Shown here in pieces: positions 23,565-24,350 of a stretch of DNA of 64,000 nucleotides. Position 1 is the stretch's first letter; each line of letters starts with the position of its first letter. This DNA comes from Enterobacteria phage KhF2. Under the pieces are notes generated by a model. The model was given only the letters and a program-made list of their open reading frames with translations. It did not search any database and was not told the DNA's origin. A program made the translations under genes and the position numbers. Where the stretch lies: sequence record KT184314.1; one strand, written 5' to 3'.

Positions 23565-24350
23565 TTAGCTCTTTGCGTCTAAGAAGGTAACTTCTGGCGA
23601 AGAGAAAACTGTCTCGATATCCTCATCAGTTCTTGCATAGATGTAAGTATCTGCATCACTGCCAAATGTTACTGCAATCCTGTGATTGCTCTTCGACAGG
23701 TGGGTAACTAGAGCGTTACTTAGAGACATCTTTTCAACCGGAGGGTTACTTTGATGTATCTTACCTTTTCTTCGTCTGAAGAGGGTAACTGCATTATCCG
23801 TGAACACAACTACACCTGCAAAGTATTCTGGTTCACAGTAGTTCTTCCAACCTGAGCGTAACTTGTGGTACATCTCTCCTTCATAGACATATAGATAAAC
23901 ATCTACACTCTTCATCACCTGATTAATGATAACTGTGACGGCTTGAGGGTCTAGCCCACCGATACCTGCACCAATCATAGGTAACCCGACTTTCTTCAAC
24001 TGATTGACTTCACAGTATCTGTTAAGCTGTTTCAAAGATGACTCTAAAGCACTGTATCGGGCATCTTTACCAGTCTTAAGCTGAGTGTAAAGGTTAGCTA
24101 TACGACCTTGTTTTAAACGTGCTACAGAGAAATTACCCAGTAAATTTTCACAGGGTTTGTGTCCTATACCACCTGCATATAGATAAACTTCTGTATCGGT
24201 CTCATATGCTTTTGGGTAAAGTTTAGAAATCTTGTCAGCGATACCTGCACCCATTAAATTCATACAGTTGCAACCGTGACCGATGATGTCAAACTTACCT
24301 TTATCAAATGCGGCAAAGATATCACCATTGATTATTTTTACAATACCCAT
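23565..24350 (-). CDS. macro-domain protein (ADP-ribose binding/processing fold) with C-terminal extension
   Basis: N-terminal IINGDIF...DIIGHGCNCMNLMGAGIA matches the macro-domain pattern (GDI...N.....G.GIA). Confidence 0.55.
   Translation of the reverse strand: MGIVKIINGDIFAAFDKGKFDIIGHGCNCMNLMGAGIADKISKLYPKAYETDTEVYLYAGGIGHKPCENLLGNFSVARLKQGRIANLYTQLKTGKDARYSALESSLKQLNRYCEVNQLKKVGLPMIGAGIGGLDPQAVTVIINQVMKSVDVYLYVYEGEMYHKLRSGWKNYCEPEYFAGVVVFTDNAVTLFRRRKGKIHQSNPPVEKMSLSNALVTHLSKSNHRIAVTFGSDADTYIYARTDEDIETVFSSPEVTFLDAKS

Follow-up and report, generated by a model that had tools for sequence, protein, structure and literature searches.

The 64,000-nucleotide stretch of Enterobacteria phage KhF2 analysed here (KT184314.1; hereafter the window, with positions counted from its first letter) encodes a 261-residue protein in which a macrodomain is fused to an orphan C-terminal domain. 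We tentatively favour, at a probability of about 0.4, reversal of DarT2-type DNA ADP-ribosylation as the main role of this macro protein; it may also have the role of Adpp, a phage macro protein that feeds the NAD+ system NARP1. The preference rests on four points: the best-scoring characterised homolog is the anti-DarTG2 protein Tk.4/AdfM of phage T4, a DNA hydrolase with the same glutamine-type active site is a precedent, the gene lies outside the NARP1 operon, and the protein has an extra domain that appears to face a macromolecule. The gene would then encode an early enzyme with which a Felix O1-like phage counters host defence; everything past the fold, the family and residue conservation is inferred. 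The gene and its two domains are as follows.

23565–24350, minus strand: macro gene, complete coding sequence of 261 amino acids plus stop (open reading frame (ORF) list; PHROG 335)
23883–24350, minus strand: N-terminal macrodomain, residues 1–156, Gln-type member of the TARG1/DarG/Poa1p/SCO6735-like class (Pfam, Foldseek, family profile against the PDB)
23568–23882, minus strand: C-terminal orphan domain, residues 157–261, with a linker helix, about six β-strands and a C-terminal helix (Ounavirinae-like phages only)

Residues 1–156 are a genuine macrodomain, as the sequence-only reading had proposed. The two strings on which that proposal was based lie at residues 6–12 (IINGDIF) and 24–38 (GHGCNCMNLMGAGIA), and the ORF fills exactly 23565–24350, on the minus strand, which had not been given. 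Pfam Macro (PF01661) matches residues 25–141 at 32.3 bits (gathering cutoff 22, E = 1e-7) and is covered over profile positions 2–117 of 118. A phmmer search of PDB sequences recovered TARG1/OARD1 (E = 1e-5), DarG, coronavirus Mac1 and Poa1p. An AlphaFold2 model of the full protein, built on 19 homologs, has a mean pLDDT (predicted local distance difference test) of 85.2 and a pTM (predicted template modelling score) of 0.86. Comparison of this model with the PDB by Foldseek gave 231 matches at E ≤ 1e-3, confined to the first ~155 residues. These included TARG1 (E = 7e-10, template modelling (TM) score 0.83), the macrodomains of the DarG proteins from Thermus aquaticus and M. tuberculosis (Mtb; E ~3e-8, best 2.4e-8, TM 0.78–0.82), Poa1p (E = 2e-7, TM 0.75) and viral macrodomains, each with a Foldseek probability of 1.00. 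A profile of the phage family, compared with the PDB, matched BT1257 (2AFC/2FG1) and SCO6735 (5E3B) at ~3e-18 (SCO6735, 3.5e-18), followed by Poa1p (9e-17), Mtb DarG (2.6e-16) and TARG1 (1.8e-15). Profile, solved-structure sequences and the structure prediction that had been proposed as a check all agree on the fold.

The macrodomain has four motifs, H25-G-C-N28-C, M33-G-A-G-I-A38, N86-L-Y-T-Q90 and P124-x-I-G-A-G-I-G-G132. The two Gly-rich diphosphate loops, M33–A38 and I126-G-A-G-I-G-G132, show little or no variation among the 19 homologs and align with their equivalents in TARG1, DarG, SCO6735 and Poa1p. His25 is likewise invariant among the homologs. In both HMMER and MAFFT alignments the catalytic lysines of DarG (K80, in FPTKK) and TARG1 (K84) align with Gln90 of the invariant NLYTQ, and the TARG1-type lysine dyad is absent, Lys84/Asp125 being replaced by Gln90/Gly131. 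A glutamine at the lysine position is also found in T4 Tk.4, in macro proteins embedded in NARP1 operons, in SCO6735 (NMIGQH) and in BT1257, while Poa1p has a serine. Gln90 and Asn28, each invariant in 19/19 and 13/13 aligned homologs, match the pair formed in SCO6735 by Q85 and its locking asparagine, N27. In SCO6735, Q85 is essential (Q85A/E dead) and N27S is nearly dead, Asn27 locking the glutamine in its productive rotamer; the enzyme outpaces DarG in stripping thymidine-linked ADP-ribose from DarT-modified single-stranded DNA (ssDNA) and also protects E. coli from DarT, and both SCO6735 and TARG1 act on DNA and protein substrates (PMC9411070). By analogy, the Gln-for-Lys active site is compatible with DNA de-ADP-ribosylation. 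Val25 of SCO6735 corresponds to Gly26, and the contact there runs through the backbone. The loop after NLYTQ is 5–6 residues shorter than in SCO6735 and BT1257, so that the extended basic mobile loop of SCO6735 is missing, but it contains K92 and K95. The N-terminal domain is basic in Felixounaviruses (isoelectric point (pI) 8.6–9.3). These alignments show that every residue known to matter in this macro class is retained (Asn28, Gln90, His25 and both Gly-rich loops), and the macrodomain looks catalytically competent, within the Gln-type branch of the ALC1-like/TARG1/DarG/Poa1p class.

By score, the nearest experimentally studied relative is Tk.4 of T4. The authentic T4 protein is 35% identical to residues 3–157 of the macro protein (82 bits, E = 3e-24) and its CM8 ortholog is 36% identical (84 bits). 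Tk.4 and the macro protein have in common the motifs HGCNC, MG(A/S)G(I/V)A, NLYTQ and PxIGxGIxG. The HIDEN-SEQ preprint reports that T4 tk.4 was the single match of a transposon screen on DarTG2 and that T4 becomes sensitive to DarTG2 when tk.4 is cleanly knocked out; it introduced the name adfM (anti-DarT factor, macrodomain), and the anti-DarTG2 function is shown genetically, in T4 only (10.1101/2025.11.20.689424). This lends support to the suggestion, made from the letters alone, that the phage reverses ADP-ribosylation-based defence. In the proposed mechanism, the macrodomain would bind the ADP-ribose moiety and hydrolyse the bond at C1'' of the distal ribose. Where a host DarT2-type toxin ADP-ribosylates thymidines on single-stranded phage DNA, the macro protein would remove the ADP-ribose and restore phage replication, as for T4 Tk.4/AdfM. 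Dephosphorylation of ADP-ribose-1''-phosphate (ADPR-1''-P) is probably within its reach too, since this involves the same C1'' chemistry.

The NAD+ module that had been noted 8 kb from the macro gene is real. It is the known NARP1 system, which lies on the minus strand, 7.5 kb from the macro gene and upstream of it with respect to transcription.

31836–33617, minus strand: Namat-like gene (Nampt/NAPRTase fold), second NARP1 enzyme (Pfam NAPRTase, E = 2.3e-34, and NAMPT_N)
33663–34559, minus strand: Adps-like gene (phosphoribosyl pyrophosphate (PRPP)-synthetase fold), first NARP1 enzyme (Pfam Pribosyltran and Pribosyl_synth)

NARP1 was discovered in the Felixounavirus Bas63, as genes 79–80 (10.1101/2024.02.11.579819). 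In 15% of NARP1 operons a macro protein, Adpp, is embedded; the purified Adpp of Vibrio phage Gary dephosphorylates ADPR-1''-P, which the RES-domain defence aRES produces, and the resulting ADP-ribose (ADPR) is then used by NARP1 (10.64898/2026.01.28.702374, preprint). Gary Adpp, with its sequence taken from Table S1 of that preprint, is 27% identical to the macro protein (52 bits, E = 2e-12), and the window holds this Adpp homolog together with Adps and Namat. The main substrate might accordingly be free ADPR-1''-P from NAD+ phosphorolysis by aRES rather than modified DNA, with the ADPR product rebuilt to NAD+ by phage Adps and Namat, a NARP1-AP arrangement with an unlinked phosphatase gene. 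We regard this as a serious but somewhat unlikely alternative. The link to the NAD+ module made by the sequence-only reading is plausible to the extent that an Adpp of the same family feeds NARP1, the Adpp reaction being the one route by which the macro protein could feed it; what NARP1 itself counters is the depletion of NAD+ and not ADP-ribosylation. By itself, NARP1 does not withstand aRES, a defence present in E. coli, Klebsiella and Enterobacter. Gary Adpp belongs to the same Gln-type family (77–85 bits to Tk.4), NARP1-associated macro proteins with HGCNC/NxYTQ exist, the NARP1-associated macro protein of JG004 scores 76–89 bits to the two-domain family, and the long-standing "phosphatase" (A1pp) annotation agrees with such an activity.

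Gene position speaks for both sides. The macro gene and NARP1 share a strand and the early arm in all the Ounavirinae-like genomes and contigs examined, which were ekra, three metagenomic contigs with macro proteins 33–41% identical to that of the window, and the Erwinia Kolesnikvirus vEam_W_25; no relative with the macro gene but lacking NARP1 was found among them. This co-occurrence is no independent evidence of coupling, because it reflects synteny across the whole lineage. Unlike in K460, Noelle and Barba19A, where the macro gene is embedded in or adjacent to NARP1, the gene of the window lies 7.5 kb and more than 12 ORFs from Namat, outside the two-gene adjacency used for Adpp, and in a separate transcription unit with its own terminator. 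T4 keeps a close homolog, although the ~8 kb surrounding tk.4 contain no gene annotated as Adps or Namat, and T4 is not known to have NARP1 elsewhere in its genome. A phosphatase of soluble metabolites would also have no need for a further, fast-evolving domain, and the validated Adpp consists of a single domain. These features favour DarT2 reversal over a phosphatase acting in trans. The NARP1 operon itself varies: its genes are adjacent in the window (31836–34559), in ekra (L001, 15782–18961) an HNH homing endonuclease gene lies between them, and in contig L005 an HNH_3 gene follows Namat. There is mobile-endonuclease traffic inside or beside this operon.

The two activities need not exclude each other. 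One active site could clear both thymidine-linked ADP-ribose and the 1''-phosphate, so that DarT2 and aRES would both be countered and both matter in vivo, a reading that overlaps with the two already described. Tk.4/AdfM and Adpp form one family with 35–39% identity, and the group removed in either reaction sits at C1'' of ADP-ribose, making dual activity chemically plausible. Promiscuity of the class is documented by the DNA and protein substrates of SCO6735 and TARG1 (PMC9411070), and in vitro dephosphorylation of ADPR-1''-P is on record for several viral macrodomains (as cited in 10.64898/2026.01.28.702374). Tk.4/AdfM and Adpp may each have the activity of the other. However, dual activity is an analogy between family members that were assayed separately, and promiscuity of macrodomains in vitro is often of no relevance in vivo. 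We consider it unlikely that one enzyme serves against both defences in the cell.

The C-terminal domain distinguishes the macro protein from the remainder of its family. Among 2,794 phage records that match it, 257 cover at least 80% of its length, and the rest, including T4-like phages, match residues ~3–157 only. The sequence-only reading had described an unannotated 110-residue C-terminal region; it is unannotated, with no match to a Pfam family, and its length is 105 residues. Modelled alone, the domain gives a confident prediction, with a pLDDT of 80 and a pTM of 0.72. An exhaustive phmmer pass over 1.84 billion representatives returned family members only, and a fold search in BFVD recovered only the SUSP2 ortholog. 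An alignment profile search added nothing, yielding a 54-residue fragment and missing known full-length members, which makes its sensitivity doubtful. Comparison with the C-terminal DarT-binding half of a DarG model gave no match. The single match outside the family (P0033, E = 9.4e-4) proved spurious, as a 28-residue low-complexity stretch was matched six times in a 1072-residue repeat protein. By hhalign, the C-domains of Ounavirinae-like phages are nevertheless one homologous family (probabilities 96.8% and 97.4%, E = 2.8e-10 and 1.5e-11). Both domains are under purifying selection. Across 28 IMG/VR alleles, the ratio of nonsynonymous to synonymous substitution rates is 0.178 for the C-domain and 0.068 for the macrodomain within the main allele class, and 0.43 and 0.17, respectively, between allele classes. 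In distant homologs the C-domain is 13–19% identical, compared to 40–53% for the macrodomain, and column entropy is 1.99 versus 1.05 bits. Neither an acidic DNA mimic nor a strongly basic DNA binder fits the net charge of the domain, which varies without trend among homologs, between −5 and +4.

Comparison with a nearly identical contig, L007, showed that the macro locus is exchanged as a unit. The contig is 96.1% identical to the window over the 9.6 kb upstream of the macro gene and 96.9% identical downstream, while its macro protein, P0009, is only 41% identical.

23512–24208, no strand assigned: cassette in which no similarity to the other allele (P0009 type) is detectable at the DNA level, codons ~48–261 plus the terminator (blastn, L007 against the window)

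The P0009-type allele (allele B) is present at 95% identity or more in 13 sequenced Felixounavirus records. Across Felixounaviruses, no identity to P0009 falls between 60% and 95%, and all other alleles lie near 42%. Two discrete, deeply diverged alleles in near-identical genomes are the pattern expected of a host-facing counter-defence gene. A host-facing role is suggested as well by the low identity of the C-domain and by the purifying selection on both domains. The replacement also argues against a C-domain that docks onto Adps, Namat or other conserved phage proteins, because Adps and Namat stay ~96% identical across the swap, and it speaks against the macro protein being a tightly co-adapted metabolic partner of NARP1. 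Wild-type VpaE1 (KM657822/NC_027337) carries allele A, with 42% identity to P0009, and the record of its derivative VpaE1_ev035 (LR699048) carries allele B, with 95.7%, which suggests that the macro locus was exchanged by recombination between co-propagated Felixounaviruses.

Given its 13–19% identity in distant homologs and the cassette exchange amid ~96% identical genes, the C-domain would have a variable partner rather than a conserved phage protein. We picture it, with less confidence than the macrodomain activity, as a lineage-specific, β-rich module facing a variable macromolecule, be it a host toxin, another defence protein or ssDNA. A bolder variant makes the protein a two-pronged "orphan antitoxin" assembled from non-homologous parts. 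Its macrodomain would erase DarT2 marks on DNA and rescue NARP1 from aRES, while its C-domain, a new fold, would directly bind and block a host toxin or other defence protein, mimicking the unrelated C-terminal domain of DarG, with alleles matched to host toxin variants. We think this variant improbable.

Housekeeping and other ADP-ribose roles were also weighed against DarT2 reversal. The macro protein might clear Appr-1''-p from RNA repair, deacetylate O-acetyl-ADP-ribose, de-ADP-ribosylate proteins, degrade an ADPR immune signal, or act as a binder or sensor with the C-domain as effector. A polynucleotide kinase (PNK)-like gene at 26383–27078 lies 2 kb from the macro gene, some records label the macro gene an O-acetyl-ADP-ribose deacetylase, and Iyer et al. 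argue that phage macro proteins target mainly soluble ADPr derivatives (PMC9503650). The metagenomic protein P0026 (339 residues), of the same Gln-type family, is fused to PF20274 (cREC, predicted cyclic-phosphate ADP-ribose processing), a hint that soluble ADPr-phosphate derivatives are the substrates of some members of the family. Against these roles, RNA ligase, Tpt1/KptA and 2H phosphoesterase were not seen in the neighbourhood of the macro gene, and retention of all catalytic-class residues speaks against a pure binder. Counter-defence has two experimental precedents in this phage family and these other roles have none, and we rate them as quite improbable. As to the PNK label, the product of that gene (231 residues, minus strand, "polynucleotide kinase" in relatives) has no Pfam match at E ≤ 1e-3, and its homologs in related contigs give weak or faint HAD_PNKP matches, a thin basis for the name.

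Several points weigh against DarT2 reversal. All of its functional support is drawn by analogy from relatives outside Ounavirinae. For Tk.4 the evidence is genetic and comes from a preprint (10.1101/2025.11.20.689424). Tk.4 is as close to Adpp as to the macro protein: T4 Tk.4 and Gary Adpp are 35% identical (77 bits), and the CM8 ortholog and Gary Adpp 38.7% (85 bits). Because Tk.4 and Adpp resemble each other (35–39%) as much as either resembles the macro protein, sequence cannot assign the substrate between their two activities. Some NARP1-associated macro proteins also reach 67–76 bits against the macro protein (phiAbaA1 67; JG004 76, nearly as high as the 84 of Tk.4), and up to 89 bits against distant two-domain homologs. 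The HGCNC and NLYTQ motifs fail as discriminators, as some NARP1-associated macro proteins in Table S1 of the aRES preprint carry HGCNC/NxYTQ. Phylogeny fails as well, a neighbour-joining tree with 200 bootstraps supporting the two-domain clade at 58% and deep nodes at 2–28%. Lys34, which positions DNA in SCO6735, corresponds to Ala35, and the basic pI of the N-domain is not kept in distant two-domain homologs. The role given to the C-domain is conjecture, with neither a consistent charge bias nor a fold match. Finally, PhiKZ gp104, also called AdfM, was tested biochemically on DarT2-modified DNA (PMC13309987), but it does not serve as the closest biochemical precedent, being Lys-type and DarG-like with 89 bits to Mtb DarG and 26 bits to the macro protein. 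The Gln-type T4 Tk.4 and the Lys-type PhiKZ gp104 score ~23 bits against each other; by these scores, and from the literature together with the loci L042:5926-6390 and L004:12518-13006, the name AdfM spans two distinct, non-orthologous macro clades.

The setting of the macro gene is that of a Felixounavirus. PHROG 335 ("phosphatase") matches residues 1–260 at E = 1e-113, and relatives label the gene "putative phosphatase", "O-acetyl-ADP-ribose deacetylase" or "hypothetical protein". Its length is stable, every one of the 28 IMG/VR alleles encoding 260–264 residues, and the ortholog in the Felixounavirus LF82P9 is 100% identical. Since the 3-kb region around the gene is 99.8% identical to LF82P9 and 91–99% identical to many Felix O1-like myoviruses of Escherichia, Salmonella and Shigella, the window is, by DNA identity, from the genome of a Felixounavirus (Ounavirinae). 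Ekra is an annotated relative in which the macro gene (ekra_14, "putative phosphatase") lies in the leftward early arm, in the order small hypothetical genes, macro gene, spanins, PNK-like, lysin, rIIB, rIIA, nicotinamide phosphoribosyltransferase-like and ribose-phosphate pyrophosphokinase-like. The "small-gene array" of the sequence-only reading corresponds to this early arm of short hypothetical genes. Two features border the macro gene.

23494–23535, minus strand: intrinsic-terminator-like hairpin (17-pair stem and T-run), 30 nucleotides past the macro stop codon (consensus scan)
24351–24551, minus strand: small upstream ORF of 66 residues, CxxC...CxGC, zinc-ribbon-like, its stop abutting the macro start codon (ORF list)

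The hairpin is the probable end of the macro transcription unit, and terminators are annotated at the end of the gene in relatives (KT184316 and MZ726791). The 66-residue ORF and the macro gene are possibly translationally coupled. L007 has this ORF with 100% identity, despite the replacement of its macro gene. In distant relatives a small ORF likewise abuts the macro start; these ORFs are 27–30% identical and their homology is not clear. Downstream of the macro gene, the ~520-bp intergenic gap (23045–23564) holds 3–4 copies of a ~34-nucleotide direct repeat at 23301–23506, with the core ACCTGCACA(A/G)TT(C/T)(T/G)AAAATGA and a spacing of 39–84 nucleotides, partly overlapping the terminator. 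These repeats could serve the transcription unit that follows to the left, as promoters or as a regulatory array. Upstream of NARP1, 36080–36565 and 37618–39762 (minus strand) encode the anaerobic ribonucleotide reductase NrdD (ATP-cone, NRDD and glycyl-radical domains) and its radical-SAM activase, which are ordinary for a Felixounavirus.

Typing, biocontrol and therapy directed at Salmonella and E. coli make wide use of Felix O1-like phages, and NARP1 was discovered in one of them, the model phage Bas63; a preprint on PhageMaP essentiality in Bas63 does not mention the macro gene. Host range would be easier to predict if it were clear whether their conserved macro protein overcomes DarTG2, aRES or both. 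Two preprints from 2025–26 give different functions, anti-DarT2 and ADPR-1''-P phosphatase, to one family with 35–39% identity, which raises the question of a single phage enzyme set against two unrelated NAD+-based defences. The C-domain, being conserved, selected, fast-evolving and cassette-swapped, is a candidate new interaction module in the phage–host arms race.

Structural comparison to cellular enzymes places the macro protein closest to TARG1/OARD1 (PDB 4J5R/4J5S) and Poa1p (6LFQ), its best structural matches, with which it shares the conserved His25 and the Gly-rich loops. Poa1p differs in having a serine at the glutamine position, and its Ser30 corresponds to Leu32. SCO6735 and BT1257 share the substitution of glutamine for the catalytic lysine and the conserved asparagine that locks it, but are ~24% identical, have a mobile loop 5 residues longer, are cellular rather than viral, and lack a C-terminal domain. 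DarG (PDB 5M3E, 5M3I) shares the macro fold and the layout of a macrodomain followed by a C-terminal domain, and its role, like that of PhiKZ gp104, is reversal of DarT DNA ADP-ribosylation. It differs in its catalytic lysine (Gln90 in the macro protein) and in its DarT-binding C-terminal domain, which is non-homologous. The DarG family NF048014 (NCBIfam) scores 47.8 bits, far under its 250-bit cutoff and on the macro half only, which places the macro protein outside that family. No darT lies next to the macro gene, its neighbours being small phage ORFs, spanins and the terminator, and the flanking ORFs have no Pfam match.

Among phage proteins, T4 Tk.4 resembles the macro protein in homology over the whole macrodomain, in the glutamine at the position of the DarG lysine, in its early location among small ORFs and in its annotation as an A1pp phosphatase. 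It has 155 residues and no C-terminal domain, whereas the macro protein carries an additional 105-residue domain, and no NARP1 genes are annotated around tk.4, whereas the Felixounavirus has NARP1 in the same early arm. Adpp is similar in belonging to the same Gln-type phage macro family, in having Poa1p as nearest eukaryotic relative and in coming from a NARP1-encoding phage. It differs in its single domain and in a gene placed between or beside Adps and Namat, not 7.5 kb off in another transcription unit. The macrodomain is a new member of this known phage family (Tk.4/AdfM–Adpp) and does not define a new kind of system; what is new is the two-domain layout, with its orphan C-domain, and the swapping of alleles.

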